Positions 29,163 through 43,743 of a stretch of DNA of 53,708 bases are shown one piece after another (the first letter of the stretch is position 1; each line of letters begins with the position of its first letter). Below the pieces are notes generated by a model, which did not search any database, had not been told where the DNA came from, and saw only the letters and a list, made by a program, of their open reading frames with translations. The position numbers and the translations under genes were made by a program. The DNA comes from Bacillota bacterium (GTDB taxonomy: Bacteria > Bacillota_I > Bacilli_A > RF39 > UBA660): assembly GCA_015059375.1 (NCBI GenBank), contig SVAN01000006.1:1-53708 (forward strand), read 5' to 3'.

Positions 29163-30215
29163 ATGAATTTTGTAATTAATGATCATAATATAGTTGAAAT
29201 TTTAATCGTAACTTATTTAGTAAGTTTTTTACTGGTTTTTTTAAGCAAAAAATTGGCTTTTCATATTGGGGCAATTGATATGCCAAATGAACGCAAAGTT
29301 CATCAGCGCCCAATGCCAAGACTGGGGGGAATTGCTGTATACGGAGCCTTTTTGTTTGGTTATATAATGTATGGGAGTTTAACAACACAAATGCTTTCAA
29401 TTCTGATTGCTTCTTTTATTATCGTTATGCTTGGCTTAATTGATGACATTAAACCACTAAGAGCTAAAGATAAACTATTAGTACAATTAATCGCAGCATC
29501 CATTGTGGTCTTTTATGGCAAACTTTATTTTTCAGAAATTACACTCTTAGGCTTAACTTTAGTTTTTCCACCAATAGTAAATCAACTGATAGCACTTTTC
29601 TTTATCGTCGGATCAGTTAATGCCATTAATTTAATTGATGGGTTAGACGGTTTGTCTTCTGGAATAAGTTCTATATACTTTACGACAATTTCAATTATCG
29701 CATTTATTTTAAATCAGCAACAAGGATTAGATATCATTCTTTGCTTAATTATGCTTGGTTCTACTTTAGGGTTTTTAACTCATAACTTTCCTCCGGCAAA
29801 AACATTTATTGGGGACTGTGGCAGCACTTTTCTTGGTTTTATGATTGCGGTAATTGCGCTTTTGGGATTTAAGGTGACTACGATTACTTCGTTAGTAATT
29901 CCGCTATTAATATTGGCTATTCCAATTTTTGACACAGCATTTGCTATATTACGTAGACTTCTTAATCACAAAAAAATTGGCGAACCAGATAAACAACATT
30001 TTCATCATCAATTATTAAAAATGAAATTTTCTCCGAGAGTTTCAATTTTAATTATTTATGGAATTAATATTCTGTTTTCAGCGGTATCAATTTTCTATGT
30101 GCTAGGAGATAATAAAGTTGCAATGGTCATTTATATCATATTGATGATTCTATTATTGTATATCGTTATAAATACGGATATTTTGTTTGAACATAAGAAT
30201 AATAAGAGAAAATAG
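29163..30215 (+). CDS. tagO: Undecaprenyl-phosphate GlcNAc-1-phosphate transferase (TagO/WecA/MraY family)
   Basis: RKVH..PMPRLGG, GLIDD, NAINLIDGLDGL, FIGDCGS, DKQHFHH. Confidence 0.9.
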   Translation: MNFVINDHNIVEILIVTYLVSFLLVFLSKKLAFHIGAIDMPNERKVHQRPMPRLGGIAVYGAFLFGYIMYGSLTTQMLSILIASFIIVMLGLIDDIKPLRAKDKLLVQLIAASIVVFYGKLYFSEITLLGLTLVFPPIVNQLIALFFIVGSVNAINLIDGLDGLSSGISSIYFTTISIIAFILNQQQGLDIILCLIMLGSTLGFLTHNFPPAKTFIGDCGSTFLGFMIAVIALLGFKVTTITSLVIPLLILAIPIFDTAFAILRRLLNHKKIGEPDKQHFHHQLLKMKFSPRVSILIIYGINILFSAVSIFYVLGDNKVAMVIYIILMILLLYIVINTDILFEHKNNKRK

Positions 30216-30258
30216 ACAATTAAAAAACGATTTGATAAAATAAAAAACGGTGAAGGCA

Positions 30259-32406
30259 ATGAAGAAATTACTTGAAAAACAAAACTTAATAAAAACAATG
30301 CTGATATTATATACTTTTTCGATTGTTTTAGATTTACATGTTTTTTATAATCGGATTTCAACCCTAATACGGGTGCTTATAATATCGATTTTTTTTGTGA
30401 TTGTTTTTGTTAGGTATGCTACGAGGAAAGAAAGAAAATATTTATTACTATATTTTTTTATGTTGCTCATATATCTTGTTATGCATTTGCTTAATTTAAG
30501 AAATAATAATTTGCTATCAGAATGTTTATATTTTTTGAAAATGCTAATGCCATTAATGTTAGTTTTTACAATTTATAAGTTAGATATTAAATTTGATTGT
30601 TTAAAAAAAGTTGTAAATCCATGTATTCTTTTTATTAGTGGTTCAATAGTTTTATGCAATTTATTTAAACTAGGGTTTTCTTCTTATAGTTTTGGTGCTC
30701 TTCAGGGAAATATTTTTTCATGGTTTCAAGACTCATCATTTGAGTATTATCAAGTTTCTGGCAAAGGATATTTTCATTTAGCTAATCAGATTGTAGCGAT
30801 TATACTTTTATATTTACCAATTATATTGGTTATTTTAAAAGAAAAGTTTAATGGTTATAATTTATTTGTTTTATGTATTGCATTGCTTTCATTACTAATA
30901 ATTGGTAATCGAATATCTTCTTGGGCACCTATAATAGTTATAGTAATAGCTATTTTTTTAGATTTTTTTATTACATTGCTTAAGAAGAATAAAATTGACT
31001 ATAGATTTTTATTGGGTTTGTTATTTTTGGTTTTATGTTATGGATTAATTTTTTCTCAATCTCCAATAATAAAAAGAGAGGGATATTATAATGATTTAGT
31101 ATTTGATGCTCAAAATAACGAATCTAATGAGATAGATGAACAACTTGAAACAATATTATCCGGAACGGTAATTAATATTAATTTTCCTCGTTATTACTAT
31201 CCATATGAAAACGATCCGGAATTTTGGAATAATCTTATTCAATTGCCTGATGAAAGATTGGTTGATTCTCGTTTTATTGAAATTAAAATTGTTCAAAGAA
31301 TTATTGAATTAAATAACAATTATTTTAAAGATCGTTTTTTAGGAATTGGCTATGATCGAATTATTAATATTCAAAATATTGAAAGAGATTATGTGATGCA
31401 ATATTATTCTATAGGGATTATAGGGTGCGTTTTATTTTTAGGTGGTTATTTTGCTTTGTTGTTATATTTAGGATTTAAAATTTTCATTAATTTAGAAAAG
31501 AAGTTTACTTATCGAAACCTAATGCTTTTGATGGGAATTTGCTTAGTTTTATTAGCGGCCTATTTCAGTGGAAATTTATTAAATTCTATTAGTGTAATGA
31601 TTCCACTTTGCTTTGTTTTAGGTGTTACTTTAAATGAAGTCCGAAGAAAAGAACAGTGCTATAATCGGATCCTTGGTTTCAAAGTTTGTTCACTTAGCGA
31701 AGAAGAAATTATTAAAAAATTGGATGGCGAAATATCGCAAGGTAAACAAAATATTATTTTTAATATTAATCCGTTGATTGTTGCCAACTTTTATAAAGAT
31801 TACAAGATTGTTGAAGAGTTTAATAAGGAAAAGTATAATATTCCTGATGGTATTGGTACCGTTTTTGCTTTGAAAATGAAAGATGGTGATGTAACGCAAA
31901 GGATTGCTGGCGTAGATTTAGTAGATAACATAGTGGCTATGGCTGAAAAGCGTAAATATAAGATTTATTTATATGGTTCTAAAGATGGAGTAGCAGTTAA
32001 AGCTAAAGAAGAATTAGAAAAAAAGTATCCGAAAATTAAAATTGTAGGAACATTAAGTGGCTATGAAAAGGAAGCTAAAGCTCTTAAAGATATTGTACAA
32101 AAACAACCTGATATTTTATTTGTAGCTTTAGGTAGTCCTAAACAAGAATTATTTATTATTAATAATAAACGTAAATTAAAAAATATTAAAGTAATTATGC
32201 CCGTTGGTGGTTCTTTAGATGTAATTAGCAATACAGTAAAAAGGGCACCAGAGCAGTATAGTAAATGGCACCTTGAATGGTTATATCGAATGGTAAAAGA
32301 ACCGAAAAGAATTAAGAAAAACCTTAATTTGTTTAAATTTGTTTTTCTAGTATTATTTAGAAATAGTTGGTATAATGAGAAAAAGAATGGAGAAGTTAAT
32401 GATTAA
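30259..32406 (+). CDS. Fusion: O-antigen ligase/Wzy-like polytopic domain + TagA/WecG/CpsF glycosyltransferase
   Basis: About 460-aa multi-TM N-terminus (GYFHLANQI, FLGIGY, ERDY...GIIG) in frame with a TagA-type domain (INP, IPDGIG, RIAGVDL, FVALGSPKQE, VGGSLDV, RAP, LEWLYR). Confidence 0.85.
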   Translation: MKKLLEKQNLIKTMLILYTFSIVLDLHVFYNRISTLIRVLIISIFFVIVFVRYATRKERKYLLLYFFMLLIYLVMHLLNLRNNNLLSECLYFLKMLMPLMLVFTIYKLDIKFDCLKKVVNPCILFISGSIVLCNLFKLGFSSYSFGALQGNIFSWFQDSSFEYYQVSGKGYFHLANQIVAIILLYLPIILVILKEKFNGYNLFVLCIALLSLLIIGNRISSWAPIIVIVIAIFLDFFITLLKKNKIDYRFLLGLLFLVLCYGLIFSQSPIIKREGYYNDLVFDAQNNESNEIDEQLETILSGTVININFPRYYYPYENDPEFWNNLIQLPDERLVDSRFIEIKIVQRIIELNNNYFKDRFLGIGYDRIINIQNIERDYVMQYYSIGIIGCVLFLGGYFALLLYLGFKIFINLEKKFTYRNLMLLMGICLVLLAAYFSGNLLNSISVMIPLCFVLGVTLNEVRRKEQCYNRILGFKVCSLSEEEIIKKLDGEISQGKQNIIFNINPLIVANFYKDYKIVEEFNKEKYNIPDGIGTVFALKMKDGDVTQRIAGVDLVDNIVAMAEKRKYKIYLYGSKDGVAVKAKEELEKKYPKIKIVGTLSGYEKEAKALKDIVQKQPDILFVALGSPKQELFIINNKRKLKNIKVIMPVGGSLDVISNTVKRAPEQYSKWHLEWLYRMVKEPKRIKKNLNLFKFVFLVLFRNSWYNEKKNGEVND

Positions 32407-33184
32407 GAATATACTAATAAATTTTAAGAAATATCAATTTTTGTTATTACAGTTAGTGTCTCGTGACTTTAAAGTGAAATATAAACGAAGCTTTTTAGGA
32501 ATTATTTGGAGTTTGCTTTATCCAATATTAACGATGACCGTAATGGCTTTGGTTTTTACTAATATGTTTAAAATGAGTATGCCTGGTATCAATTATTTGG
32601 TTTATTTAATGTCTGGCTTGGTAATTTTTAACTATTTTAGTGAAGCTTCGAATTTGGCGATGAGCAGTGTAGTTAGTAATTTTTCTTTGATTAATAAGGT
32701 TTATATTCCTAAATATATTTTCCCTTTATCAAAGTGTCTTTTTGTCGGAATTAATTTTCTTTTAACTTTAATTCCTTTGTATGGACTTATCATCATAACA
32801 GGTACAGGCGTAAATGTTTATCATTTATTGCTCCCATTTGTTATCGTATGCTTGTTTTTGTTTACTGTGGGAGTGGGTTTTATCTTATCGACTATTTCAG
32901 TATTTTTAAGAGATGTGTTTTATATATATGGAGTAGTTACAACACTATTACAATATATGACTCCTATTATCTATGATTTTTCGATAATTCCCGAGCATCT
33001 GCAAATAATCTTTAAATGTAACCCATTATATTGGTTTATTTATTTTGCTAGAGATATTATTTTATACAGTAAGGCTCCTAGTATAAATATTTGGTTTTAT
33101 TGTTTTGTTTTTGCTTTGGGAACTTTATTAATAGGAATTCTAGTATTTAAGAAGAATCAAGATAAATTTATTTATTATGTATAG
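32399..33184 (+). CDS. Polysaccharide/teichoic acid ABC exporter permease (TagG/Wzm)
   Basis: RDFKVKYKRSFLGIIWSLLYP, LINKVYIP, TPIIY, NPLY. Confidence 0.92.
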   Translation: MIKNILINFKKYQFLLLQLVSRDFKVKYKRSFLGIIWSLLYPILTMTVMALVFTNMFKMSMPGINYLVYLMSGLVIFNYFSEASNLAMSSVVSNFSLINKVYIPKYIFPLSKCLFVGINFLLTLIPLYGLIIITGTGVNVYHLLLPFVIVCLFLFTVGVGFILSTISVFLRDVFYIYGVVTTLLQYMTPIIYDFSIIPEHLQIIFKCNPLYWFIYFARDIILYSKAPSINIWFYCFVFALGTLLIGILVFKKNQDKFIYYV

Positions 33185-33192
33185 GTGATGTT

Positions 33193-33957
33193 ATGAAGCA
33201 AGAGAATGTAATGATTAAAATTAATGATGTATCGATGAGATTTAATTTAGGTATTGAAAAGGGTTTTTCACTAAAACAAGGATTTGTTGACTTTTTTGAT
33301 TTTAAAAGACGAAAAGAAAAGAAATCTCGTAAAAATGAATTTTGGGCCCTTAGTAATGTGTCTTTCAAAGTGAAAAAGGGTGAGGTTATTGGCTTTATTG
33401 GTAGTAATGGCGCTGGTAAGTCCACTCTTTTGAAAATCGTAGCTGGAGTGATGAAACCCACGCAAGGGAAAATCGATGTGTATGGAAATATTTGTCCAAT
33501 GATTGAACTTGGTGCTGGTTTTGATATGGATTTAACTGCGCGAGAAAATATCTATTTAAATGGCGCTGTAATGGGGTACTCAAAAGATTTTATTGATTCA
33601 AAGTTTGAAGAAATTGTGGATTTTTCAGAACTTAGAGAGTTTCTCGATGTTCCAGTAAAAAATTTTTCTTCGGGAATGGTTGCTAGACTAGCTTTTAGTG
33701 TAGCAACGGTAGTTGATCCAGAAATTTTAATTGTTGATGAAATATTATCAGTTGGTGATATTGCATTCCAAGGCAAAAGTGAACAAAAAATGTTAAGTAT
33801 GATAAATGGAGGAACGACGGTTCTATTTGTGTCGCATAGTATTGAACAAATTAAAAAACTATGTGATAAAGTTGTTTGGTTAGATCATGGGGTAGTTCAA
33901 AAAATTGGTGGTAAAGAAGTTTGCGATGAATATTTACGATCTGTGGGAGCAGTGTAA
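33193..33957 (+). CDS. Polysaccharide ABC exporter ATPase (TagH/Wzt, no C-terminal glycan-binding domain)
   Basis: FWALSNVSF, GSNGAGKST, FSSGMVARLAF, VDEILSVGD. Confidence 0.93.
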   Translation: MKQENVMIKINDVSMRFNLGIEKGFSLKQGFVDFFDFKRRKEKKSRKNEFWALSNVSFKVKKGEVIGFIGSNGAGKSTLLKIVAGVMKPTQGKIDVYGNICPMIELGAGFDMDLTARENIYLNGAVMGYSKDFIDSKFEEIVDFSELREFLDVPVKNFSSGMVARLAFSVATVVDPEILIVDEILSVGDIAFQGKSEQKMLSMINGGTTVLFVSHSIEQIKKLCDKVVWLDHGVVQKIGGKEVCDEYLRSVGAV

Positions 33958-33960
33958 TTA

Positions 33961-35055
33961 GTGAAAAAACTATTGTTTACCGCTAAAAATATGCATATTG
34001 GCGGAATGGAAAAAGCTCTAGTAATATTATTAAATAATTTAGTTAAAGAATATCGAATAACTCTTTTGCTTGAAGAAAATGATGGTGTATTAAAAAAAAT
34101 GCTTAATTCCAAAATTAAAATTGAGGAATATAAAGTATCTAATAATAAAAATATTATTATTCGAAAGGGATGTAATTTTTTAAAAAGATTTTGTTGGACT
34201 CTACGGAACTATCATCGCTATGATTTTAGTTGTTCTTATGCTACTTATTCTGTTATTGGTGCTCGTTTAGCTCTTAAGGGTTCTAAAAATTCTACACTAT
34301 ATGTTCATAGTAATTATTATGGTTATTATGATGGCGATAAAGAACGAATATTAGATTTTTTTAAAATGCTTAATTACCAAAGTTTTAAAAAAATGATTTT
34401 TGTCTCTAATGAAAGTTTTAATTTAGTGAAAGAAATTCTGGATATTGATGATAAGAAAGGTGCAGTAATAAATAATTTAGTTAATGTAAAAGAAATATTA
34501 GATGCTACCTTAGAAAAAAGTGATTTAACAATTTTTGAATCGAGCAATATTAATGTGTTATTTGTAGGAAGGTTAGACAATACCTCTAAAAATTTTGATT
34601 TGTTACTTGATAGTTTTGCCAAAGTAAAGAATAATTCGGTAAGATTATTTATATTAGGTGATGGCGATTATAAAACTAATATTATTTCGAAAATTAAACA
34701 ATTGAACTTAGAAAATAAAGTCACTTTATTAGGAGAAAAAATAAACCCTTATCCATATATGAAGTATTGTGATGCTCTAATTTTAACTTCGAAATATGAA
34801 GGCTTTCCACTTGTTTATACCGAAGCGTTAGTTTTAAATAAAAAGCTTATTACAACTGTTCCTGTTAGTGATTCTCTTCTGGATATTAAAAAGTACTTTG
34901 AATGTGTTGATGCCAATAGCGAAGATATAAGTATTGCTATCGACAATTTAACAAAGGAAAAAATTGACTACTACGTTGATTTTGACCAAATTAACAAAGC
35001 AAATTTGCAGAAATTGAAAAAATTGATTGAGGGAGACGGCAAAAATGAAAAATAA
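33961..35055 (+). CDS. GT4-type glycosyltransferase
   Basis: GGMEKAL, FVGRL...KNFD, NPYPYM, SKYEGFPLVYTEA. Confidence 0.88.
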   Translation: MKKLLFTAKNMHIGGMEKALVILLNNLVKEYRITLLLEENDGVLKKMLNSKIKIEEYKVSNNKNIIIRKGCNFLKRFCWTLRNYHRYDFSCSYATYSVIGARLALKGSKNSTLYVHSNYYGYYDGDKERILDFFKMLNYQSFKKMIFVSNESFNLVKEILDIDDKKGAVINNLVNVKEILDATLEKSDLTIFESSNINVLFVGRLDNTSKNFDLLLDSFAKVKNNSVRLFILGDGDYKTNIISKIKQLNLENKVTLLGEKINPYPYMKYCDALILTSKYEGFPLVYTEALVLNKKLITTVPVSDSLLDIKKYFECVDANSEDISIAIDNLTKEKIDYYVDFDQINKANLQKLKKLIEGDGKNEK

Positions 35056-36574
35056 TCTAAACAATTCATACTTAAAAGTTATTGCAGGCTATATTAGTGA
35101 AATGTATTTACCTAGTATAAGTGCTATGGAAATATTTGAAATAGCTTCTACACTGGAACAAACAAGCATGCAGGATATATTTGAAAAGATATATATAATA
35201 TATAAGAATGATATAAAGGTACCTAAGAACGACTATTTAAATATGATTAATAAAATATATTTTTATTTAGCCGATAACAATATAAGTGTTTTCGAAGAAG
35301 ATTTAGATAATAAAAAGGTATTGAGTTTAATTAATAATGAAATCCGGCAAAAAGATTGTTATTTATTCGAAAAAATAACTTATCCATTATTCTTATTTAC
35401 GAAAAATTTATATTTTGAACTTATAAAAAACGGTGCTCAAAAAGTTTATTTTTTTTCTAGAGAAGGTCAATTTATGAAAAAAATTTTTGAAGCATTTCAA
35501 GAACAGATGTGTGGTCCTAAAGTAAAAACCGAATATTTATATGTTTCTAGAGCGTCAACCTTTTTAGGAACATTGAATTCAATTGATAAAGAGAACTTTC
35601 AGGCATTATTTAATCAATATCCCAAAATGTCTATTAAAACTTTTTTACAAAATCTAGATTTTACAGATGATGAAATTACTAATTTGAACAAAAAAATAGA
35701 TCTTGATTTTTGTTTGAAAATTGAGAATATACAGAAATCTGAAGCTCTGAAAAAAGTGAAATCTGATAAAACTTTTGTGGAGTTATATAATACTAAAAGG
35801 AAGAATGCTAAAAATTCTTTTATCAAATATCTTTCCAGCTTTGGTGAAGATTATCAAAAAGAACTGTATGTAGTTGATGTTGGCTGGAAAGGGACTATTC
35901 AAAATAATCTTCAGAAAATATTAACTAAAACAAAAATTCATGGTTATTATTTAGGTTTAGTTCATTATGATAAAATTGAAGATTATGAATTCAAAAATAG
36001 TTGTTTATTTGAATATAGCATAGAAAATAAAACAAATAATGGAATTTTATATAATAGTAATCGATCAATATTTGAGGTTCTTTTATCTGCAGATCATGGT
36101 AGTACAAAAAATTATGAAATCCATAATGATAAAGCAGTACCAGTTTTAAATAATCAAGTTAAGGAACAAGAACTATATGTAGAAAAAATAAAACCAATTC
36201 AAGAGAACATCTACGAAAAGTTTGTAAAAATTTCTGAAATACTAAAATATGGTTATTTTGATAAAATGTATGTTGAGAAACTAATGAATAAACAATTTTT
36301 TAAGTTAATGTTTAAGCCTTCGAAAGCAGAGGTTAATGAATATAATTCGTTTTATCATTTTGAAAACTTTGGCGTAATGAATTATTCGCGTTTTAATACT
36401 GCCAAAAAAGTTACATTAAAACAAAAAATCAAAAATTATCGTCATTTTCGTACTTTTATTCAAAATGATGATTCGTGGCAGTATTTAAAATTACATAATA
36501 ATAAAATGGTTTTAGGTAAAATAGTGTTATATTTTTATAAAAAAGCACGATTTAAAAAAATGGGAGTTATTTAA
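35045..36574 (+). CDS. Glycan phosphoribosyltransferase-like protein lacking the HAD phosphatase domain
   Basis: FFSREG, YLYVSR, VDVGWKGTIQ, GYYLG and FEVLLSADHGS parallel the C-terminal domain of 37828..39849; no DxD HAD motif. Confidence 0.65.
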   Translation: MKNNLNNSYLKVIAGYISEMYLPSISAMEIFEIASTLEQTSMQDIFEKIYIIYKNDIKVPKNDYLNMINKIYFYLADNNISVFEEDLDNKKVLSLINNEIRQKDCYLFEKITYPLFLFTKNLYFELIKNGAQKVYFFSREGQFMKKIFEAFQEQMCGPKVKTEYLYVSRASTFLGTLNSIDKENFQALFNQYPKMSIKTFLQNLDFTDDEITNLNKKIDLDFCLKIENIQKSEALKKVKSDKTFVELYNTKRKNAKNSFIKYLSSFGEDYQKELYVVDVGWKGTIQNNLQKILTKTKIHGYYLGLVHYDKIEDYEFKNSCLFEYSIENKTNNGILYNSNRSIFEVLLSADHGSTKNYEIHNDKAVPVLNNQVKEQELYVEKIKPIQENIYEKFVKISEILKYGYFDKMYVEKLMNKQFFKLMFKPSKAEVNEYNSFYHFENFGVMNYSRFNTAKKVTLKQKIKNYRHFRTFIQNDDSWQYLKLHNNKMVLGKIVLYFYKKARFKKMGVI

Positions 36575-36588
36575 AAAGAGAGGTATAA

Positions 36589-37755
36589 ATGAAGATAGTT
36601 TTTTTACTTGGAAATCCGGATATAGGTGGGGGAACATATGTAATATACCAGCATGCATTAAAATGCTTGGATGAAAATAATGAAGTTACAATAGTTACAG
36701 ATGAGGTCGTTACTCCCAAAAGAATTGCATGGCATAAAGGTGCAGAAAGATTAACTTTTAAAAAATATAAAGATGTTGAAAATGAAGAGTTTGATGTAGC
36801 GATAGCAACCTGGTGGAGAACAATTTATGAACTTCCCAAAATAAAAGCCAAGTCATATATATACTTTGTTCAATCGATTGAATCAAAATTTTATGAAGAG
36901 CAGGAATTAAAATGGTTAGTCGAAGCAACGTATACTTTGCCTTTATCGATTATAACGGAAGCAACTTGGATTAAAAAATATCTAGAAACTAATTATGCCC
37001 TCGACGTTAAATTAGTAAGAAATGGAATTCGCAAAGATATCTATTTAAAACAAGGCGAAGTCTATCCAAAACCGAAAGAAAACTTTCGCGTTTTAATCGA
37101 AGGCCCAGTCGACGTGCCTTTCAAAAATGTGCCATCAACAGTAAATCTTGTTAAAAAGAGCAAAGCTGATGAAATTTGGCTTTTAACGTCATCTGACATA
37201 AAGGAATATCCAGGCGTAGACAAAGTTTTTTCAAGAATGCCAATTAGTGAGTGTGCCAAAATTTATCGTTCATGTGATGTTATTGTAAAATTAAGTTATG
37301 TAGAGGGAATGTTTGGACCACCTTTAGAAATGTTTCATTGCGGGGGAACTGCAATTACCTATGATGTAACGGGCCATGATGAGTATCTAAAAAGTGAATA
37401 TAACTCTTTAATTGTAGCTACGGACGATGAAGACGGGGTAATTAAGTCAATTAATAGATTATATGATAATCGCCAATTATTAGAAAAATTAAAAGCAAAT
37501 GCTCAAAAAACAGCAGACAAGTGGCCAGATTGGGATGATTCTTCGTCAGAGTTTTATGAAGCTGTTAAAAAATATAGTAAGATAAAGATAAATTCTAAAT
37601 GGCTAAATGCGAATATTATTTTTCACGGAAAAACATATCAAAGATATCAGGAAATGAATATTTCTACTAAAACTAAAATTGGCAATTTTCTGCGAAATAA
37701 GCTTCCATTCTTATATAAAATATATCGGCTTTTAAGGTATGGAAAAGTCAGGTGA
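36589..37755 (+). CDS. GT4-type glycosyltransferase (WsaF-like)
   Basis: GGGTYVIYQHA, IATWWRT, YFVQSIE, EGMFGPPLEMFHCG. Confidence 0.82.
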   Translation: MKIVFLLGNPDIGGGTYVIYQHALKCLDENNEVTIVTDEVVTPKRIAWHKGAERLTFKKYKDVENEEFDVAIATWWRTIYELPKIKAKSYIYFVQSIESKFYEEQELKWLVEATYTLPLSIITEATWIKKYLETNYALDVKLVRNGIRKDIYLKQGEVYPKPKENFRVLIEGPVDVPFKNVPSTVNLVKKSKADEIWLLTSSDIKEYPGVDKVFSRMPISECAKIYRSCDVIVKLSYVEGMFGPPLEMFHCGGTAITYDVTGHDEYLKSEYNSLIVATDDEDGVIKSINRLYDNRQLLEKLKANAQKTADKWPDWDDSSSEFYEAVKKYSKIKINSKWLNANIIFHGKTYQRYQEMNISTKTKIGNFLRNKLPFLYKIYRLLRYGKVR

Positions 37756-37827
37756 AATCAGAGCTGAAAAAATTACGTTGATTTTGTGAAGATACGTGAT
37801 ATAATTAAAAGCAGCGAGGGAAGAAGT

Positions 37828-39849
37828 ATGAAAGAATACGATAAATTAATAAAACTTATTGATGAAAAGGATATTGTTTCGTTTGATATTTTTGATACAT
37901 TATTACTTAGAAATGTCCAAAGACCAGTTGATATATTTAGAATTTTAGAAAAATTAGTCAAGGAAAAATATGGAATTGACGATTTTTTTGTGACAAGAAC
38001 TACATGTGAAAACGAATCACGAACAATTGAAAATAATTATGAAACAACATTAGATGAAATATATAACCATATTCCTATTAAAAGCAAAAAGATTAAAAAT
38101 GAAATAAAAGAATTAGAGTTGAAATTAGAAGATGATTTTTTAATAGCTAATCCTTTTATGCAAAAAGTATATAATTATTGCAAGAAAAAAGGGAAGAATA
38201 TAGTATGTATTTCTGATATGTATTTACCATTATCTTTTATTGAATCTGTTTTGGAAAAAAATGGTTATAAAGGCGTTAAAGTTTATCTTTCTTGTGTTCA
38301 TAAAAAATACAAAGGAAATGGATCTTTATATGAGGAAGTTTGCAAACTTGAAAATTTTGATAAAAGCAAATGGATTCATATAGGAGATAATTATGATTCT
38401 GATTATGTTCAAGCAACGTTGTTTGGAATTAGTGCCTTTCATTATCCAAAAGTATTAGAGCGAAGTGATGTTAATGGTGAAATGACTTCGATTGCAAGTA
38501 CAATTATTAACGCAATTCGTAATAATGAAGTAAATAATGGTCTTGAAGTTTCATATTGGAAAAAGTTTGGAGTATTAAATGCTTCAGGAATTTATTTTGC
38601 TTTTGCCAATTGGATATATCAAAGATCAATTGATCATGATAATGTTTATTTCTTATCTAGAGATGGATATATTGTTAAAAAAGTATTTGATTTAATTGCT
38701 AAAAAAGAAAAATTTGCGATTGATTCTAGATATTTGTATACATCACGTCGAGCAATTCAATTACCAATGCTTACATTCGAAAAAAAGACATATGCCATTG
38801 ATACTTTAGCTTCTATTAATCGTGGTTTAAATGAAAAGATGAAGATTAAGAATGTATTCAAATATTTTGATATGGATACAAAAAAGTATGAGGGTTTAAT
38901 TAAAAAATATGGTTTTAAATCTTTTGATCAAGAGATTGAAGACTATAATTTCTTAACATTTAAACAAATGCTTTCTGAGATTTATAGCGATTTTCAATAC
39001 GAAATGGATAAAAGAGTTAATTTAATAAAAAAATATTTAAAACAAGAGAATATTAATGATTATAAAAAAGTGTTTATGGTTGACATCGGTTGGCGTGGTA
39101 GCGTTCAATATGCATTGGATAAAGTAATTGATCAAGAAGTATTTGGCTATTATTTCTGCACAAATCCATTTGTATATCCTGATATTTTTTATAATACACA
39201 AGGCTTTATGATTAATTATGGGAATCCAGCTTGGTTAGAACAAGATGTATTTAGAAATATTATGTTATATGAATTTTTATTTTCTGCACCTGAGGGTTCA
39301 TTAAAGGGATTTGAAGAAAAGAATAAAAAAATAGTTCCAGTTTTAGATAACAAGAATGACTATTTAAAAGAAATTGCTGAATTACAAGACTCCGCTTTAG
39401 AAGTTGTTGATAAATTTATGCAATATTATGATTATGTTAAAGACATTTCTGCAGAAGAAGCCGTATGGCCATATCGCAATTTCATTATGAATAAAAAATA
39501 TGAAGATTTAGTAATGTTTAGTAAATTAGAAACAAACGTAGGTTATGCTGGAGACAGTTATAGTTTTATTCCAACTTTTACTAAACAAGAAATTGAAGAA
39601 AATGTGCCAAGATTTATGGATGAAATTAATCGGGCAATGTGGAATGGGACTTTCCTAGTTAAAGAAATTAATAGTGCTGAAGATTATGAAGAATATAAGA
39701 AAAAAATATTTAGTACTTTTAATAAAATAACACTGCATGATATATGTACATATCCGAACTTTAAAAAAGCAGTAAAACATCCTAGAAAAGCTGTAAGAAA
39801 ATTAAAGGAAATAGCAGATTATAATAAAACTGGTGGTTTCATTAAATAA
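37828..39849 (+). CDS. HAD phosphatase + phosphoribosyltransferase-like dual-domain protein (probable ribofuranosyltransferase)
   Basis: SFDIFDTLLLR, ISDMYL, K, HIGDNYDSD (HAD motifs I-IV), then FLSRDG, YLYTSR, VDIGWRGSVQ, EFLFSAPEGS. Confidence 0.75.
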   Translation: MKEYDKLIKLIDEKDIVSFDIFDTLLLRNVQRPVDIFRILEKLVKEKYGIDDFFVTRTTCENESRTIENNYETTLDEIYNHIPIKSKKIKNEIKELELKLEDDFLIANPFMQKVYNYCKKKGKNIVCISDMYLPLSFIESVLEKNGYKGVKVYLSCVHKKYKGNGSLYEEVCKLENFDKSKWIHIGDNYDSDYVQATLFGISAFHYPKVLERSDVNGEMTSIASTIINAIRNNEVNNGLEVSYWKKFGVLNASGIYFAFANWIYQRSIDHDNVYFLSRDGYIVKKVFDLIAKKEKFAIDSRYLYTSRRAIQLPMLTFEKKTYAIDTLASINRGLNEKMKIKNVFKYFDMDTKKYEGLIKKYGFKSFDQEIEDYNFLTFKQMLSEIYSDFQYEMDKRVNLIKKYLKQENINDYKKVFMVDIGWRGSVQYALDKVIDQEVFGYYFCTNPFVYPDIFYNTQGFMINYGNPAWLEQDVFRNIMLYEFLFSAPEGSLKGFEEKNKKIVPVLDNKNDYLKEIAELQDSALEVVDKFMQYYDYVKDISAEEAVWPYRNFIMNKKYEDLVMFSKLETNVGYAGDSYSFIPTFTKQEIEENVPRFMDEINRAMWNGTFLVKEINSAEDYEEYKKKIFSTFNKITLHDICTYPNFKKAVKHPRKAVRKLKEIADYNKTGGFIK

Positions 39850-39957: not shown

Positions 39958-41073
39958 ATGAAAACAATAAAAGTAATGAGTATCTTTGGTACTAGACCGG
40001 AAGCAATTAAAATGGCTCCAGTAGTTAAGGAATTAGAAAAAAATGCCCAAATTGAAAGTATTGTTTGTGTAACAGCTCAACATCGTGAAATGTTAGACCA
40101 AGTATTGGAAACTTTTAAAATCACAGCAGATTATGATTTAAATATCATGAAATCAGGCCAAACATTAAGCGAAATCACCACTCGTGCTTTGACTGGTTTA
40201 GAAGATGTGATAAAAAAAAGCAATCCAGATATTATTCTGGTTCATGGCGATACAACGACAGCTTTTGTTGGTGCTTTAGCTGCTTTTTATAATGGGGTCA
40301 TAATTGGCCATGTTGAAGCAGGATTAAGAACGTATGACAAGAATTCGCCGTTTCCTGAGGAAATGAATCGTCAAATGATTGATTGTATGGCTGATATTTA
40401 TTTTGCTCCAACAATGCTAAGTAAACATAATTTGTTGAATGAAGGAAAGAGTGAAAATAAAATTTTAGTTACCGGTAATACCGCTATTGATGCAATGAGT
40501 ACGACAATTGCCAAAGATTACCACCATAAAGAGTTAGATTGGATTAAAGCTGGTGAGCGATTAATTTTATTAACTGCTCATCGTCGGGAAAACCTTGGTG
40601 ATCCAATGCGTAATATTTTTAAAGCTATTAAGCGGATTGTTAATGAGAATAATGATGTTAAAGTAATATATCCAATTCATATGAATCCTAAGGTTCGGGA
40701 AGTAGCAAATGAAATTTTTGAAGGTTGTGATCGCGTAAAATTGATTGAACCACTTGAAGTTTTTGATTTTCATAATTTCTTAAATAAAAGTTATATTATC
40801 TTGACTGATAGTGGGGGAATTCAAGAAGAAGCTCCATCCTTAGGAAAACCGGTATTGGTTTTACGTGATACAACAGAAAGGCCAGAAGGAATTGAAGCTG
40901 GAACATTAAAATTAGTAGGAACAGATGAAAAGCTTATTTATGAAGAAACTATGACTTTATTAAATGATTTAGGAGCTTATGAAAAAATGAGTAAATCATC
41001 CAATCCTTATGGTGATGGCAAAGCTAGCCAAAGAATTGTCGAAGCCATTATTCAAAGATTTAGAGAAGACTAA
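39958..41073 (+). CDS. wecB: UDP-N-acetylglucosamine 2-epimerase, non-hydrolysing (MnaA/WecB)
   Basis: FGTRPEAIKMAP, HGDTTT, HVEAGLRT, TDSGGIQEEAP, TERPEG, NPYGDG. Confidence 0.96.
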   Translation: MKTIKVMSIFGTRPEAIKMAPVVKELEKNAQIESIVCVTAQHREMLDQVLETFKITADYDLNIMKSGQTLSEITTRALTGLEDVIKKSNPDIILVHGDTTTAFVGALAAFYNGVIIGHVEAGLRTYDKNSPFPEEMNRQMIDCMADIYFAPTMLSKHNLLNEGKSENKILVTGNTAIDAMSTTIAKDYHHKELDWIKAGERLILLTAHRRENLGDPMRNIFKAIKRIVNENNDVKVIYPIHMNPKVREVANEIFEGCDRVKLIEPLEVFDFHNFLNKSYIILTDSGGIQEEAPSLGKPVLVLRDTTERPEGIEAGTLKLVGTDEKLIYEETMTLLNDLGAYEKMSKSSNPYGDGKASQRIVEAIIQRFRED

Positions 41074-41125: not shown

Positions 41126-42394
41126 ATGAAAGAAAAAATATCAAAACTGGTTAACGTGTATAAGAAATATGGATTTAAGGATTTTTGTAAAAAACTTTAT
41201 GCTTATATTAAAGCTAATTATTTAGATAAGATAAGTTTTAAAGTTTTATTCAATAAAAAGAAGTACGTTCAAGAGATTCAAAAAATATTAAATGGAAAAT
41301 ATGATCGAATCATTTTATGGCGAAGCAGTTTTGGGTATAATGTACCTCTTTTTCAAAGGCCTCAGCATATTGCCAATAATTTATCGAAAAATAATTGTTT
41401 AGTTCTTTATGAAGTTACTACAATGACTGATAAAGTTAAAACATTAAAAAAGCAAAGCCAAAATATTTATTTATTTAATTTTAATAACATCTTGTTAAAT
41501 AAAATTTTAATGAAAGAACTAGAAAAAAACAGTAAACCAAAATATATTCAGCTATATTCAACGGACTGGAAGTTGACTGTTCAAAATATTAAGGATTATA
41601 TTACTAAAGGTTTTAGATTTATATATGAATATATTGATCATCTCAGTCCTGAATTAGCAGGAACAAAAGATTTACCACAAAATATTATTGATAAGTATGA
41701 ATATGCAATGAATAATAAAGAAGTTTACGTTGTTGTGACAGCAGATGAATTAAAAAAAGATGTTGTATCAAAAAGAGGAGAAGTAAATCTTATTGAATCT
41801 AGCAATGGAGTTGATTATCAATTTTTTAAAAAAATGGATTCTAAATATCAAGTTGAAGAAGAATTTTTAAATATTATTCAAAATGGGAAAATTAACATTT
41901 GCTATTATGGTGCACTTGCTAAATGGTTCGATTATGATTTAGTTAAAAGCGTAGCTGATACGAATAAATATAATATTATATTGTTTGGAATTAAGTATGA
42001 TGAATCATATGATGAAAAAATGGGGGAAGTACCTAATGTCTATTTTATGGGACCAAGAGATTATAAAGTATTGAAAAATTATGCATCTTTATGCGATATT
42101 TTAACAATTCCTTTTGTATTGAATGATATTACTAAGTCTACAAGTCCCGTAAAAATATTTGAATATATGGCTCTTCATAAGCCAATTGTAACAACCGATA
42201 TGTTAGAATGTCGAAAGTATCAATCAGTTATGATTGGTAAAGGAAAAAAAGATTTTTTAAAAAAGCTTGAAGAAGCGTATCAAAAAAAAGATAATAAGTC
42301 ATATATTCAGTTGTTAGATAAAGAGGCCAAAGAAAATGATTGGAGTATGAAAGCAGAAGCAATTATTAATGTGATTCAAAAAGATGAAAAATAG
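41126..42394 (+). CDS. GT-B glycosyltransferase (TuaH-like)
   Basis: FQRPQHIA, NGVDY..F, YYGALAKWFD, SPVKIFEYMALHKPIV. Confidence 0.82.
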   Translation: MKEKISKLVNVYKKYGFKDFCKKLYAYIKANYLDKISFKVLFNKKKYVQEIQKILNGKYDRIILWRSSFGYNVPLFQRPQHIANNLSKNNCLVLYEVTTMTDKVKTLKKQSQNIYLFNFNNILLNKILMKELEKNSKPKYIQLYSTDWKLTVQNIKDYITKGFRFIYEYIDHLSPELAGTKDLPQNIIDKYEYAMNNKEVYVVVTADELKKDVVSKRGEVNLIESSNGVDYQFFKKMDSKYQVEEEFLNIIQNGKINICYYGALAKWFDYDLVKSVADTNKYNIILFGIKYDESYDEKMGEVPNVYFMGPRDYKVLKNYASLCDILTIPFVLNDITKSTSPVKIFEYMALHKPIVTTDMLECRKYQSVMIGKGKKDFLKKLEEAYQKKDNKSYIQLLDKEAKENDWSMKAEAIINVIQKDEK

Positions 42395-42443: not shown

Positions 42444-43370
42444 ATGGATAAAATAGCAGTATTAATACCTTGTTATAATGAAGCACAAACAATAGCAAAG
42501 GTTGTAAAAGATTATAAAAAAGCCTTACCGGAGGCCACAATTTATGTATATGATAATAACTCCAGTGATAACACAGCGCAAATAGCTCAAAAAGCAGGGG
42601 CGGTTGTTCGACATGAATATAAGCAAGGAAAAGGTAATGTTGTTCGAAGCATGTTTAGACAAATTAAAGCAGAATGTTATTTAATGATTGATGGCGATGA
42701 TACATATCCTGCTGAAAATGCTCGTGAAATGTGTGATCTAGTTTTAGAAAAGAAAGCTGATATGGTAATTGGTGATCGTTTATCATCAACGTATTTTACA
42801 GAAAACAAAAGACCATTTCATAACTTAGGAAATAAACTAGTACGTTTTTCAATTAATACCTTATTTAAAAATAAAGTAAAAGATATTATGACTGGTTATC
42901 GAGCATTTAGTTATGAATTTGTTAAAGGTTTTCCTGTGTTATCAAAAGGTTTTGAGATTGAAACAGAAATGACAATTCATGCGGTTGATAAGAATTATCG
43001 ATTAGTTGAAGTTCCTGTCAATTATAAAGATCGCCCTGAAGGTAGTGTATCAAAGTTAAATACATATAAAGATGGAGCAAAGGTATTAAAAACCATAGCA
43101 GTTCTTTTTAAAGAATATAAGCCATCAGCATTTTTTAATATTATTTCATGTATCTTTTTAATTTTAGCTTTGTGTTTCGGAATGCCTGTAGTTATTGAAT
43201 TTTATAAAACGGGATTAGTTCCTCGTTTTCCAACATTAATAGTAGCATCAATATTCTTGGTTATTTCTTTATTACTTTGGATATGTGGCGTTATTTTACA
43301 AGTTATAGTAAAAAAACATAAACAACTATATGAGATTTTAATGAATATGATGAATAAGGAATATGAATAA
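42444..43370 (+). CDS. GT2 polyprenol-phosphate glycosyltransferase (GtrB/DPM-synthase-like)
   Basis: IPCYNE, DNNSSD, DGDDTY, FEIETEM; two C-terminal TM helices. Confidence 0.9.
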   Translation: MDKIAVLIPCYNEAQTIAKVVKDYKKALPEATIYVYDNNSSDNTAQIAQKAGAVVRHEYKQGKGNVVRSMFRQIKAECYLMIDGDDTYPAENAREMCDLVLEKKADMVIGDRLSSTYFTENKRPFHNLGNKLVRFSINTLFKNKVKDIMTGYRAFSYEFVKGFPVLSKGFEIETEMTIHAVDKNYRLVEVPVNYKDRPEGSVSKLNTYKDGAKVLKTIAVLFKEYKPSAFFNIISCIFLILALCFGMPVVIEFYKTGLVPRFPTLIVASIFLVISLLLWICGVILQVIVKKHKQLYEILMNMMNKEYE

Positions 43371-43743
43371 GTTAATTAAACAGATATTAAAATTTGGGAT
43401 TGTCGGAGGCATTGCTTTTGTAATCGATTATGGCATATTTGCCTTGCTTACATCTTTTAATTTGCATTATTTATGGGCTCAAGTCATATCTTTTACTGTT
43501 GCATTGGCATTCAATTATTTAGCGAGTATTAAGTGGGTATTCGATGCTAAAAGACAAACTCCAAAAGAGATTATTATTTTTATTGTATTAAGTGTAGTAG
43601 GCTTAGGAATTAACGAGTTATTACTATTTATAGGTGTTGATAAAATGAATTATCATGAGTTGATTGTTAAACTAGTTTCAACAATTATTGTAATGATATA
43701 TAATTTTATTACACGTAAGTTAATTGTTGAAAAGCATAGTTAA
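43363..43743 (+). CDS. GtrA-family flippase
   Basis: KFGIVGG...DY, FNY...KWVF, YNFITRK; 4 TM helices. Confidence 0.9.
   Translation: MNKLIKQILKFGIVGGIAFVIDYGIFALLTSFNLHYLWAQVISFTVALAFNYLASIKWVFDAKRQTPKEIIIFIVLSVVGLGINELLLFIGVDKMNYHELIVKLVSTIIVMIYNFITRKLIVEKHS

Follow-up and report, generated by a model that had tools for sequence, protein, structure and literature searches.

A putative three-gene ribofuranosylation cassette in a Gram-positive wall-polysaccharide cluster, with one phosphatase that may serve two transferases

How does a ribofuranosyltransferase manage without the phosphatase that its relatives carry? The question is raised by a 53,708-nucleotide stretch of DNA from a Bacillota bacterium (contig SVAN01000006.1, hereafter the window), in which the gene for a dual-domain enzyme and that for a shorter relative stand on either side of a glycosyltransferase gene (Table 1). 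A preliminary description of this DNA offered two readings of the short enzyme: it leaves ribofuranose-5-phosphate (Ribf-5-P) in its product, or it relies on the partner's phosphatase in trans. We believe the comparative evidence, which is drawn from sequences, favours the second. The names type A, type B and GT4mid were coined in this analysis. The host is a small gut-type Gram-positive bacterium, and the genes sit in a wall-sugar cluster.

Table 1. Predicted features of the cluster, with the residues or searches on which each assignment is based
Feature	Coordinates	Strand	Basis
TagO-like GT4/MraY-family initiator	29163..30215	+	Pfam
O-antigen-ligase-like + WecG/TagA fusion	30250..32406	+	Pfam
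ABC-2 permease	32375..33184	+	Pfam
ABC ATPase, 254 aa, without carbohydrate-binding domain	33193..33957	+	Pfam
Upstream GT4	33961..35055	+	Pfam
Short enzyme, 509 aa, type-A gPRT (glycan phosphoribosyltransferase) without phosphatase core	35045..36574	+	phmmer, AF2 model
Short enzyme, residues 1-105, all-helical N-terminal region, probable vestigial HAD/PRP cap	35045..35359	+	hhalign, AF2 model
Short enzyme, gPRT catalytic domain	35360..36574	+	S138-R139-E140-G141, S168-R169, D278-x-G280-W281-K282-G283, E344, S353
GT4mid, GT4 glycosyltransferase, 388 aa, conserved partner of type-A gPRTs	36589..37755	+	Pfam Glycos_transf_1
Long enzyme, 673 aa, type-B dual-domain ribofuranosyltransferase (PRP-gPRT), Bcs3 CrpP-CriT-like	37828..39849	+	phmmer, AF2 model
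Long enzyme, PRP (HAD phosphatase) domain, residues 1-235	37828..38532	+	D20 (nucleophile), D23, T24, S129-D130, K162, G186-D187, D192
Long enzyme, gPRT domain	38554..39849	+	S277-R278-D279-G280, S306-R307, D419-x-G421-W422-R423-G424, E482, S491
UDP-GlcNAc 2-epimerase	39958..41073	+	Pfam, NCBIfam
TuaH-like GT4	41126..42394	+	Pfam, NCBIfam
GT2	42444..43370	+	Pfam, NCBIfam
GtrA-like	43363..43743	+	Pfam, NCBIfam

The short frame is open over 35027..36574 from a TTG and the long one over 37786..39849 from a GTG; the lengths in Table 1 count from the ATGs at 35045 and 37828. A Shine-Dalgarno-like word (GAGGGAG or GAGGGAAG) lies 6-10 nt before each ATG, so the starts first proposed are the likely ones. 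The long protein had been described as an N-terminal HAD domain followed by a ribofuranosyltransferase domain, and this stands. Its translation contains SFDIFDT, CISDMY, HIGDNYDSD, FLSRDG, YTSRRA and VDIGWRGSVQ. Residues 14-594 match 383-990 of Bcs3 (phmmer E 3.3e-22) and 7SHG is also matched (E 1.8e-19); Pfam and NCBIfam give only a sub-threshold HAD match (PF00702, which scores 21.7 bits where 26.4 are required). The AF2 model (pLDDT 88.4) aligns with CrpP and CriT of Bcs3 (8a0c_A) at a VIA Z of 27.0 (rmsd 4.9, 590 residues, 13-635 on 379-1021), and HAD phosphatases match its residues 1-240 at Z 14-16. D20 aligns with Bcs3 D386, the PRP residues of Table 1 are invariant or nearly so among 18 type-B enzymes (alignment A3), and so are the gPRT residues, which align to CriT. 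Besides this domain, no further PRP-like domain was found in the window's 72%-complete assembly.

The short protein carries FFSREG, YVSRAS and VDVGWKGTIQ and no HAD motif, just as first described, and a PRP HMM built here finds nothing in it. It has zero matches in Pfam and NCBIfam; phmmer aligns residues 106-462 with 288-648 of the 7SHG chain, a 'ribofuranosyl transferase' (E 2.8e-56). Its AF2 model (pLDDT 79.4, pTM 0.85) aligns with 7SHG at Z 33.4 (rmsd 3.9, 432 residues), with Bcs3 CriT at Z 20.1 and with classical HPRT-type PRTases at Z 7-8, so the C-terminal domains of both proteins have the phosphoribosyltransferase fold. Full-length relatives (P0002-P0011, 498-514 aa) are 47-56% identical to it. 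Its motif residues are invariant or nearly so in alignments A1 and A2, and by transitive alignment they correspond to Bcs3 S678/R679/D680, S707/R708, E818, E874 and S884, which are named as PRPP-site and catalytic residues (PMC10299916). As far as sequence can tell, the short enzyme retains every PRPP-site motif and the phosphatase core is missing; both enzymes would be expected to use PRPP.

What had been called simply a short N-terminus does lack HAD motifs, but it is probably more than that. When the region in 9 short-clade proteins is set against the PRP domains of 25 dual enzymes, hhalign returns E 1.6e-4, with columns 8-77 placed on PRP cap columns 35-121. Twelve controls (shuffled, reversed, other-domain) gave E 0.068-0.82, and a thirteenth comparison, with a type-B PRP profile, gave E 0.02 over 14 columns elsewhere. 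The N-terminal helices are modelled at pLDDT about 85-95, and VIA aligns model residues 1-436 with 7SHG 16-597. Mean pairwise identity in the short clade is 25% in this region versus 58% in the gPRT part. We suggest that the phosphatase of a dual-domain ancestor was stripped of its Rossmann core and that its helical cap survived as a structural relic, so that the first ~105 residues are probably a leftover of the lost HAD domain. A degenerate remnant of this kind might suit a protein that is no longer catalytic and now only scaffolds or activates the dual-domain enzyme. There is a precedent in STM0725, which binds STM0726 and is required for polymerisation, with no required GT catalytic activity assignable to it (PMC11294581). 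We consider this very improbable for the short protein, however, for its catalytic residues are invariant in the short clade, whose gPRT part averages 58% identity, and the PRPP-site and catalytic motifs are kept in PRP-less type-A domains generally (DVGWKG in 51/51, x-SR in 51/51, [SA]REG in 45/51).

The two proteins were first called paralogues. Their homology is far from accidental (BLASTP E 8e-14, with 27% identity across 270 columns), but they are not recent duplicates; they belong to two old subfamilies, type A and type B, that co-occur across phyla. Within type A the sister of the Bacillota short clade is the dual enzyme P0007 (support 100/99), followed by the duals P0012 and L005 (100/100), and the Pseudomonadota PRP-less clade is nested among other duals (100/99). 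An AU test rejects a tree that unites the two PRP-less groups in one clade (delta lnL 309.5, p-AU 6e-78); the group was chosen after the tree was seen, and amino-acid composition is heterogeneous. Across 201 domains the PRP state must have changed at least 6 times. Type A thus lost its phosphatase at least twice, independently. The tree of GT4mid parallels that of type A, with the window's gene grouping with that of L005, a dual-A locus, so type A and GT4mid were inherited together and type B was added.

GT4mid shares 65-68% identity with its counterparts in 3 Bacillota loci and 47-49% with those in 8 Pseudomonadota loci, and locus L006 repeats the window's order of permease, ATPase, GT4, short gPRT, GT4mid and dual enzyme. 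The best explanation of the window is a three-gene ribofuranosylation cassette within an ABC-transporter-dependent wall-polysaccharide cluster. Homology points to ribofuranose in the wall polymer, and the identities given here to its sugars are predicted ones.

How general is this arrangement? We surveyed 161 loci, comprising the window, the best 80 of 166 confirmed genome matches and the best 80 of 163 metagenome matches, both samples drawn with type-A sequence patterns. Among these best matches 45 loci have two gPRT genes, and 41 of the 45 have one PRP, 4 have two (L067, L085, L089, L099) and none has zero, although only 5-6 independent evolutionary events lie behind these counts (sign test on independent pairs, median p 0.125). 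The order PRP-less A, GT4mid, PRP-bearing B occurs in 35 of the 161, across Bacillota and Pseudomonadota; the reverse case, B without PRP beside A with one, occurs in 5 of these best-match loci (L008, L013, L020, L083, L150). A GT4mid homologue, mostly directly 3' of the type-A gene, is present in 43/43 two-gPRT loci as counted with a type-A-derived gPRT HMM and in 84 of the other 118 loci of the set, and the type-A plus GT4mid layout is seen in 127/161. In 5 cassette genomes, and likewise in the window's own assembly, whole-genome searches brought up the two cassette genes alone, with no extra PRP-like domain. The same three-gene arrangement in such distant bacteria suggests that one phosphatase serves both enzymes.

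The 5-phosphate might instead be removed by an unrelated housekeeping phosphatase, with the dual-domain partner reflecting only the need for a second ribose. Sugar phosphatases, those of the HAD type among them, are common and promiscuous, and one relative, P0048, has an HD-domain phosphohydrolase where PRP normally stands, which indicates that a non-HAD replacement can occur. Such a phosphatase would predict solitary PRP-less gPRTs, but of the 40 PRP-less domains in the surveyed best matches that have adequate flanks, none is without a PRP-bearing partner, and each of the 12 lone PRP-less genes sits at a contig end. Every whole single-gPRT gene in the same samples retains its PRP (101/101), and 3 further single-gPRT loci have PRP and gPRT as adjacent split ORFs. 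We regard this explanation as improbable.

We think instead, with some reservation, that the short enzyme and the GT4 probably polymerise while the partner's phosphatase acts in trans. The short enzyme would transfer Ribf-5-P from PRPP to the growing glycan and the adjacent GT4 would put a hexose or HexNAc on that ribose, the two being the ancestral polymerase pair, comparable to ORF5 and ORF6 of Klebsiella pneumoniae O4. The long enzyme would then add a second kind of ribose, and its HAD phosphatase, common to both transferases, would strip the 5-phosphate from what each of them makes. Both the order of these steps and the trans dephosphorylation are proposals. The latter leans on the trans action of related phosphatases seen experimentally (PMC10299916, PMC11294581). 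Bcs3 constructs with one active domain each are reported to complement one another in trans, and each of its reaction centres brings together the CriT of one protomer and the CrpP of its partner (PMC10299916); wild-type STM0726 fully dephosphorylates the isolated Ribf-5-P product (PMC11294581).

The other reading, that Ribf-5-P stays, either in every repeat as an anionic group or as a single non-reducing-end block setting chain length, is in our judgement unlikely, but it deserves a hearing. The core is gone and the transferase motifs are intact; phosphatase-dead STM0726 (D14A) adds a single Ribf-5-P and then stops (PMC11294581), and dephosphorylation by PRP is described as a step 'to facilitate chain extension' (PMC11231755). 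Neither a TagB/TagF-type glycerophosphotransferase nor a UDP-sugar dehydrogenase above cut-off was found as a source of negative charge in the 72%-complete assembly. On the other hand, PRP was lost by either subfamily (A in 35 loci, B in 5, among the window and best matches), which fits redundancy better than a specific new product. In relatives the PRP works in trans on free products, so one that is co-expressed ought to take the phosphate off. In favour of a retained phosphate, methyltransferases often adjoin or are fused with PRP-less type-A enzymes in loci where Wzt has a terminator-reading C-terminal domain. Such fusions also occur on complete PRP-gPRT enzymes (P0085, P0087, P0113), so they are no pointer to a methyl-phosphate cap; moreover, the window's ATPase has no carbohydrate-binding domain and Pfam finds no methyltransferase in its cluster.

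Burkholderia bears on both readings. Bmul_2508, Bmul_2509 and Bmul_2510 of B. multivorans ATCC 17616, whose gPRT genes were published as of 'unknown function' (PMC5462993), are this cassette again. The type-A gPRT without PRP is Bmul_2508 (P0462), 30% identical to the window's short enzyme (E 8e-60), a group-1 GT lies between, and the Bmul_2510-type protein IST4116A_01722 (P0321) is a type-B PRP-gPRT, the Burkholderia type-B protein being only 21% identical to the long enzyme; both are thus distant from their counterparts in the window. Unlike the window, this locus belongs to a Gram-negative O-antigen and includes Wzm/Wzt and a methyltransferase, and in its PRP-less enzyme the gPRT domain follows after only about 30-50 residues, with no trace of the cap. 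B. cenocepacia IST439 has homologues of all three genes and makes the O-antigen [2)-beta-D-Ribf-(1-4)-alpha-D-GalpNAc-(1], in which linkage analysis found ribofuranose substituted at O2 only (PMC5462993), so there is no 5-substituent. With A and GT4mid co-inherited as a polymerase pair, this product, the only one known for a cassette strain, has ribose O5 free in the repeat and argues against a retained phosphate. Yet two gPRTs for one ribose per repeat imply that one acts outside the repeat. If that is the PRP-less enzyme, the published analysis would have missed a rare phosphorylated residue; the available part of that account (PMC5462993) makes no mention of a 31P experiment.

Comparison with known systems places both enzymes. 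The prototype PRP-gPRT structure is said to be 7SHG, the dual-domain polysaccharide ribofuranosyltransferase of Thermobacillus composti (reportedly Kelly et al. 2022). It shares the gPRT domain with the short enzyme, whose N-terminal helices align from 7SHG residue 16; it has a complete HAD phosphatase, whereas the short enzyme lacks the nucleophile strand and has no part of the Rossmann core (motifs II-IV). Both domains of CrpP-CriT in Haemophilus influenzae type b Bcs3 (8A0C/8A0M) have their match in the long enzyme, in the same arrangement, and the nucleophile Asp and the named CriT residues are conserved (PMC10299916). Unlike Bcs3 it stands alone, without the TagF-like CroT or an SH3b domain, and is paired with a phosphatase-less gPRT and a GT4 rather than a ribitol-phosphate transferase. 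In K. pneumoniae O4 the PRP-gPRT ORF5 and the adjacent retaining GT4 alpha-galactosyltransferase ORF6 are a polymerase pair that makes an alternating ribose-hexose polymer, also ABC-transporter-dependent (PMC11231755). We liken type A and GT4mid to this pair by layout; ORF5 keeps its own phosphatase, and the available account describes no second gPRT for O4 (PMC11231755). In Salmonella T1 the partner STM0725 is GT-A-like and not a gPRT homologue, but the likeness is that there, too, a dual-domain Ribf-transferase needs a second protein encoded by its neighbour (PMC11294581).

Both open reading frames of the preliminary description are real on translation, and the ATG start noted for each is preceded by a Shine-Dalgarno-like word (GAGGGAG/GAGGGAAG). 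The long protein carries the HAD phosphatase motifs SFDIFDT, CISDMY and HIGDNYDSD (the PRP domain) and the transferase motifs FLSRDG, YTSRRA and VDIGWRGSVQ (the glycan phosphoribosyltransferase, or gPRT, domain). The short protein has FFSREG, YVSRAS and VDVGWKGTIQ, and the HAD motif is absent, as had been described. They share 27% identity across 270 aligned columns (E 8e-14). The transferase domain is invisible to Pfam and NCBIfam; the short protein has zero matches in either, and the long protein has just a sub-threshold HAD match.

Features of the window and of the surveyed loci
Locus	Position	Strand	Length (aa)	Feature
Window	13333-14985	+	550	ORF, no Pfam family at E<=1e-5
Window	17791-19737	+	648	SH3_3 domain and C-terminal type I dockerin
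Window	19748-21166	+	472	Cadherin-like beta-sandwich, next after the dockerin protein
Window	30250-32406	+	718	O-antigen-ligase-like membrane domain (PF13425, 19-459) fused to WecG/TagA-type transferase (PF03808, 529-690)
Window	35045-36574		509	Short enzyme, type-A gPRT
Window	36589-37755			Middle GT4 (GT4mid), between short and long
Window	37828-39849		673	Long enzyme, type-B PRP-gPRT
Window	45783-47333	-	516	ORF, no Pfam family at E<=1e-5
Window	51746-53575	+	609	ORF, no Pfam family at E<=1e-5
L016	9341-13120		~1250	PRP, gPRT and GT4mid homologue in one polypeptide
L046	9212-12958		~1250	PRP, gPRT and GT4mid homologue in one polypeptide
L020	3595-6189		865	PRP-less type-B-like gPRT with C-terminal WsaF-like glycosyltransferase (Eubacterium MAG)
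L048	8807-11227			Methyltransferase-fused PRP-less type A
L058	8960-11302			Methyltransferase-fused PRP-less type A
L064	8903-11245			Methyltransferase-fused PRP-less type A
L076	7229-11242			Methyltransferase-fused PRP-less type A
L159	1755-4007			Methyltransferase-fused PRP-less type A
L085	10448-12346			Third gene after dual A and GT4mid, PRP-like N-terminus
L089	10448-12334			Third gene after dual A and GT4mid, PRP-like N-terminus

The preliminary description also held that the C-terminal domains have a phosphoribosyltransferase fold, and structure comparison finds that match for both proteins. The short protein matches the dual-domain enzyme 7SHG of Thermobacillus composti at E 2.8e-56, residues 106-462 aligning with chain residues 288-648, the C-terminal transferase domain. 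Its AF2 model (pLDDT 79.4, pTM 0.85) aligns with 7SHG at Z 33.4 (rmsd 3.9, 432 residues), with Bcs3 CriT of H. influenzae type b at Z 20.1, and with hypoxanthine/xanthine (HPRT-type) phosphoribosyltransferases at Z 7-8. A Foldseek search with it gives E 6e-22. The long protein matches Bcs3 at E 3.3e-22 across phosphatase and transferase parts and 7SHG at E 1.8e-19; its model (pLDDT 88.4) superposes on Bcs3 residues 379-1021 with Z 27.0 (rmsd 4.9, 590 residues), on 7SHG with Z 25.9 and on many HAD phosphatases with Z 14-16. Both models have the PRTase-like alpha/beta core and flanking helical bundles of the gPRT/CriT fold.

Excerpts of PMC10299916 name S678/R679/D680, S707/R708, E818, E874 and S884 as the PRPP-binding or catalytic residues of Bcs3 CriT, and D386 as the CrpP nucleophile. 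D680 and E818 are described there as an acidic pair holding the PRPP ribose, 'conserved in all homologs'; S678/R679, S707/R708, the loop 821-825 and S884 bind phosphate, and E874 is the proposed base. By alignment the acidic pair maps to E140 (in SREG, the same as 7SHG) and D278 of the short enzyme and to D279 and D419 of the long one, columns that are invariant or nearly so in our alignments A1, A2 and A3 (the last of 18 type-B enzymes). The phosphate site maps to S138/R139, S168/R169, G280-W281-K282-G283-T284 and S353 in the short enzyme, with E344 as base, and to S277/R278, S306/R307, G421-W422-R423-G424 and S491 in the long one, with E482 as base. The counterparts of the named CriT residues are invariant or nearly invariant among the relatives of both; Bcs3 R712 is not kept in short, long or 7SHG in these alignments. 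D20, S129-D130, K162 and G186-D187...D192 of the long phosphatase are invariant or nearly so in the 18 type-B enzymes. Because the named residues have conserved counterparts, both transferase domains and the long enzyme's phosphatase look competent. The organism's assembly has a PRPP synthetase gene. A HAD phosphatase with its nucleophilic Asp and motifs II-IV on the same chain is found in the long enzyme only. The short enzyme has no PRP HMM match and no Pfam or NCBIfam HAD match, only cap-like helices; it is therefore a gPRT and not a bipartite Ribf-GT.

The HAD cap is an insert between motif I and motif II. In A1 the opening ~80 residues of the short enzyme's clade align with the cap helices of its closest dual relatives (PRP and gPRT on one chain), and the clade is without the first strand, which bears the nucleophile, and without the block carrying motifs II-IV. 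A profile of this N-terminal region (9 proteins) matches the phosphatase domain of 25 duals at E 1.6e-4 over 70 columns, against E 0.068-0.82 for the controls (reversed, gPRT-profile and 10 column-shuffled); against the type-B phosphatase profile it gives E 0.02 over 14 unrelated columns. The AF2 model shows confident helices here, and VIA aligns model residues 1-436 with 7SHG 16-597. Mean identity inside the clade is 25% in this region versus 58% in the transferase domain. That the region is a vestigial cap, retained for structural reasons, is moderately supported. A frameshifted or unannotated HAD core 5' of the short gene is ruled out: the upstream GT4 gene ends at 35055, overlapping the start, and the 498-514 aa form is found in at least 10 protein clusters.

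To our knowledge PRPP-dependent ribofuranosyltransferases were described only in 2022-2023, as fused transferase-phosphatase enzymes. HMMER over 1.84 billion representatives finds 3022 clusters at E<=1e-3, of which 354 reach E<=1e-30. We fetched 197 relatives; 148 match the PRP HMM and 49, roughly a quarter, do not. The 49 divide into 11 short-clade members, some 20 bare transferases (400-455 aa), roughly a dozen that carry N-terminal methyltransferases, one that carries an HD domain, and a few fragments. The 2024 screen excerpted in PMC11127046 sought bipartite Ribf-GTs and would miss phosphatase-less members because its marker was the phosphatase domain; the 2022 study, according to excerpts of PMC11194591, used the gPRT domain sequence. 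PRP-less gPRTs go unmentioned in the excerpts of PMC11127046, PMC11294581, PMC11231755, PMC11194591, PMC10299916 and PMC13171606.

The gPRT P0048 (552 aa, metagenomic, on a long branch of the tree) has an N-terminal HD-domain phosphohydrolase (PF01966) instead of the HAD phosphatase; an unrelated domain may here have taken over the dephosphorylation step. One or two SAM methyltransferase domains precede the gPRT in the PRP-less type-A proteins P0023, P0026, P0031, P0103 and P0123, and in P0023 the stretch between the two parts looks coiled-coil by eye. Complete methyltransferase-PRP-gPRT fusions exist as well (P0085, P0087 and P0113), which rules out such fusions as a specific sign of a methyl-phosphate cap.

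The sample has 161 loci: the window, the best 80 of 166 confirmed matches in a set of one genome per species, and the best 80 of 163 in metagenomes. HMMs built in this analysis class the genes as type A (7SHG-like) or type B (Bcs3-like). A single type-A gene with its phosphatase occupies 101 of the 161, and in three more, type A and its phosphatase are encoded by two neighbouring ORFs. The window's arrangement, PRP-less A, GT4 and PRP-bearing B in the same order and strand, is found in 35: four Bacillota and 11 Pseudomonadota in the genome set and 20 metagenomic. Five show the reverse (A with PRP, B without), one has a dual A adjoining a PRP-less A (L084), four keep PRP in both gPRT genes, and 12 have a lone PRP-less gene, all at contig ends with flanks too short to judge. 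In this sample, drawn from the best 80 of 166 and the best 80 of 163, 41 of 45 two-transferase loci have one phosphatase, four have two and none has zero; a PRP-less domain with adequate flanks has a PRP-bearing partner in 40 of 40 cases. The PRP-less type-A domains keep DVGWKG and x-SR (51/51 each) and HAD motif I is in none (0/51). In the type-B partners HAD motifs I and IV are retained in 40/40 and DIGWRG in 35/40. In five cassette-bearing genomes searched in full, the two cassette genes were the only hits, and the window organism's assembly (72% complete) has two gPRTs and one PRP. Cultured, non-clinical carriers of the cassette include Pseudomonas sp. ANT_H12B, Nitrosomonas communis Nm44, Caballeronia fortuita LMG 29320 and Janthinobacterium sp. 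GB4P2. The context of the Bacillota short clade comes from four loci (the window, L003, L004 and L006); a metagenome scan with the single protein found no relative, and one with an alignment found no Bacillota short-clade member.

One might argue that a transferase without a phosphatase leaves the 5-phosphate on its ribose, as charge or as a chain-stopping cap. We consider this unlikely, and the first argument against it is that the losses are reciprocal: in the loci examined either partner, A or B, can be the phosphatase loser.

Two kinds of locus add further variants. The third gene of L085 and L089 has a C-terminal part too divergent for the type-A-derived gPRT HMM or Pfam; it may represent another gPRT subfamily or another kind of transferase. 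In L020, beside the WsaF-like fusion, the type-A enzyme keeps its PRP.

The phosphatase was lost more than once. In a tree of 36 transferase domains the dual P0007 is the sister of the Bacillota short clade (100/99), with the duals P0012 and L005 joining next (100/100), and the Pseudomonadota PRP-less clade falls within a group that also contains seven duals (100/99). A single change of PRP state is compatible with none of the 200 bootstrap trees. A tree constrained to unite both PRP-less groups is worse by 309.5 log-likelihood units (p-AU 6e-78), a test on a subset of our choosing from a 115-row tree (21 of 86 duals, 15 of 29 PRP-less rows), with a group named after the tree was seen and uneven amino-acid composition. 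On 201 domains at least 6 changes of PRP state are needed. There are 5-6 independent contrasts, all in one direction (sign test, median p 0.125). The one-phosphatase pattern is clean, yet it rests on few events. A recent tandem duplication of short and long is ruled out, their gPRT domains being 27% identical and in different deep clades.

Wherever the type-A-derived gPRT HMM detected two gPRT genes (43 of 43 loci), a homologue of the middle GT4 comes after type A, as it does in 84 of the remaining 118, within the same 161 loci (best 80 of 166 and best 80 of 163 included). The GT4mid tree mirrors the type-A tree, therefore type A and GT4 are an inherited pair. In this tree the window's copy clusters first with those of the other three Bacillota cassettes (95) and next with the GT4 of L005, a dual-A locus with a single gPRT gene (100), and not with the Pseudomonadota cassette copies. 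Type B joined the pair independently in the two phyla, after which type A lost its phosphatase. The gene fusions in L016 and L046 support functional coupling of the type-A transferase with the GT4. This co-inheritance is a second argument against a retained phosphate.

A published glycan is available for one cassette. Excerpts of PMC5462993 give the O-antigen of B. cenocepacia IST439 as [2)-beta-D-Ribf-(1-4)-alpha-D-GalpNAc-(1], with 2-substituted ribofuranose by linkage analysis. The cluster is of the ABC-transporter type; besides a methyltransferase, wzt and wzm it contains homologues of bmul_2508 (hypothetical), bmul_2509 (group 1 glycosyltransferase) and bmul_2510 (hypothetical, band near 75 kDa). 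There 2508 and 2510 are called proteins of unknown function. A literature search for bmul2508/bmul2510 found only this paper, whose excerpts do not mention a 31P experiment. Our entry point was L079, a cassette-bearing Burkholderia chromosome. A protein 82% identical to its PRP-less type A shares a 90%-identity cluster with ABX16192.1 ('hypothetical protein Bmul_2508 [B. multivorans ATCC 17616]'), and clusters 84-89% identical to its type B contain IST4116A_01722/IST4129_01722 (B. cenocepacia, 700 aa) and ABX16194.1 and ABX16197.1 (ATCC 17616). From the consecutive accession numbers we infer that ABX16194.1 is Bmul_2510. HMM searches find a transferase domain but not a phosphatase in Bmul_2508, and both domains in the 700-aa protein. 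In ATCC 17616 the type-B enzyme is annotated in two pieces, ABX16194.1 (470 aa) and ABX16197.1 (232 aa), our P0332 and P0333, which correspond to profile positions 2-456 and 468-677; the 700-aa protein is present in other records of B. multivorans and B. cenocepacia.

The window's short enzyme and Bmul_2508 share 30% identity (E 8e-60), the long enzyme and the Burkholderia type B only 21%. The window's wall-glycan locus, from an uncultured gut-type Gram-positive, shares its cassette with the O-antigen genes Bmul_2508-2510. Since a Bmul_2508-type cassette occurs in a strain of known O-antigen, a cassette strain makes a polymer whose repeat-unit ribose is bare at O5. The free O5 is a third argument against a retained phosphate, although two transferases are encoded there for one repeat ribose, which speaks for it. 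So does the phosphatase-dead STM0726, which stops after one Ribf-5-P (excerpts of PMC11294581), and so does the lack of alternative charge sources, TagB/F and a UDP-sugar dehydrogenase, in the window's 72%-complete assembly.

We believe that a shared phosphatase, the simplest account, is probably the better reading. The short enzyme and the GT4 would build an alternating ribose-sugar backbone, the long enzyme would add another ribose (outside the repeat in Burkholderia), and its phosphatase would serve both transferases. Excerpts of PMC10299916 and PMC11294581 establish in vitro that the PRP phosphatase of relatives acts in trans. A complex prediction of the short enzyme with long residues 1-235 scored 0.00 and 0.01, controls not being folded, and bears neither way on binding. 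It is doubtful that a PRP-less gPRT is instead a built-in phosphate installer, providing the anionic group of a teichoic-acid-free wall polysaccharide in this small-genome Gram-positive or a length-setting cap in ABC-transporter pathways. Such an enzyme would add ribose-5-phosphate in one step because PRPP already bears the 5-phosphate, and the methyltransferase-fused Proteobacterial forms could methylate the cap to give a methyl-phosphate terminator, no kinase being required.

The cluster around the window's cassette has a TagO-like initiator, the O-antigen-ligase-like/TagA fusion, MnaA, further GT4 and GT2 genes, GtrA and a TagGH-like exporter whose ATPase is without a carbohydrate-binding domain. 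Of the genes of a wall teichoic acid pathway, TagO-like, TagA-like (WecG), ABC-2/ABC and MnaA genes are present, and a search of the 72%-complete assembly gave no match to PF04464 (TagB/TagF-type CDP-glycerol/ribitol phosphotransferase). Elsewhere the window encodes an LCP ligase, an LtaS-like protein, a sortase and PBPs, from which it follows that the organism has a wall. A search of 40 relatives, 21 of them congeneric, found no gPRT; the module is sporadic, in keeping with a variable surface-glycan determinant. A literature search on ribofuranose in teichoic acids and Gram-positive walls returned nothing bearing on the window's polymer. In the related locus L006 a gene of its own (475 aa) encodes the ligase-like protein. 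The window's dockerin is unusual for a genome of roughly 1.0-1.4 Mb.

One phosphatase per locus is a testable annotation rule for ribose-containing glycans. Burkholderia offers a cultured system with a known polymer for testing phosphatase sharing, and the cassette is a candidate enzyme set for glyco-engineering ribose-containing polymers. The cassette of a Pseudomonas locus (L029) is accompanied by wzm, a GT2-GT4 protein, a methyltransferase and a wzt that carries the Wzt C-terminal domain. The methyltransferase-gPRT layout recalls the coiled-coil terminator/polymerase proteins of ABC-transporter O-antigen systems (compare excerpts of PMC11231755). The type A and GT4 pair resembles K. pneumoniae O4 ORF5 and the GT4 ORF6, which according to the same excerpts jointly polymerise Galp-Ribf.
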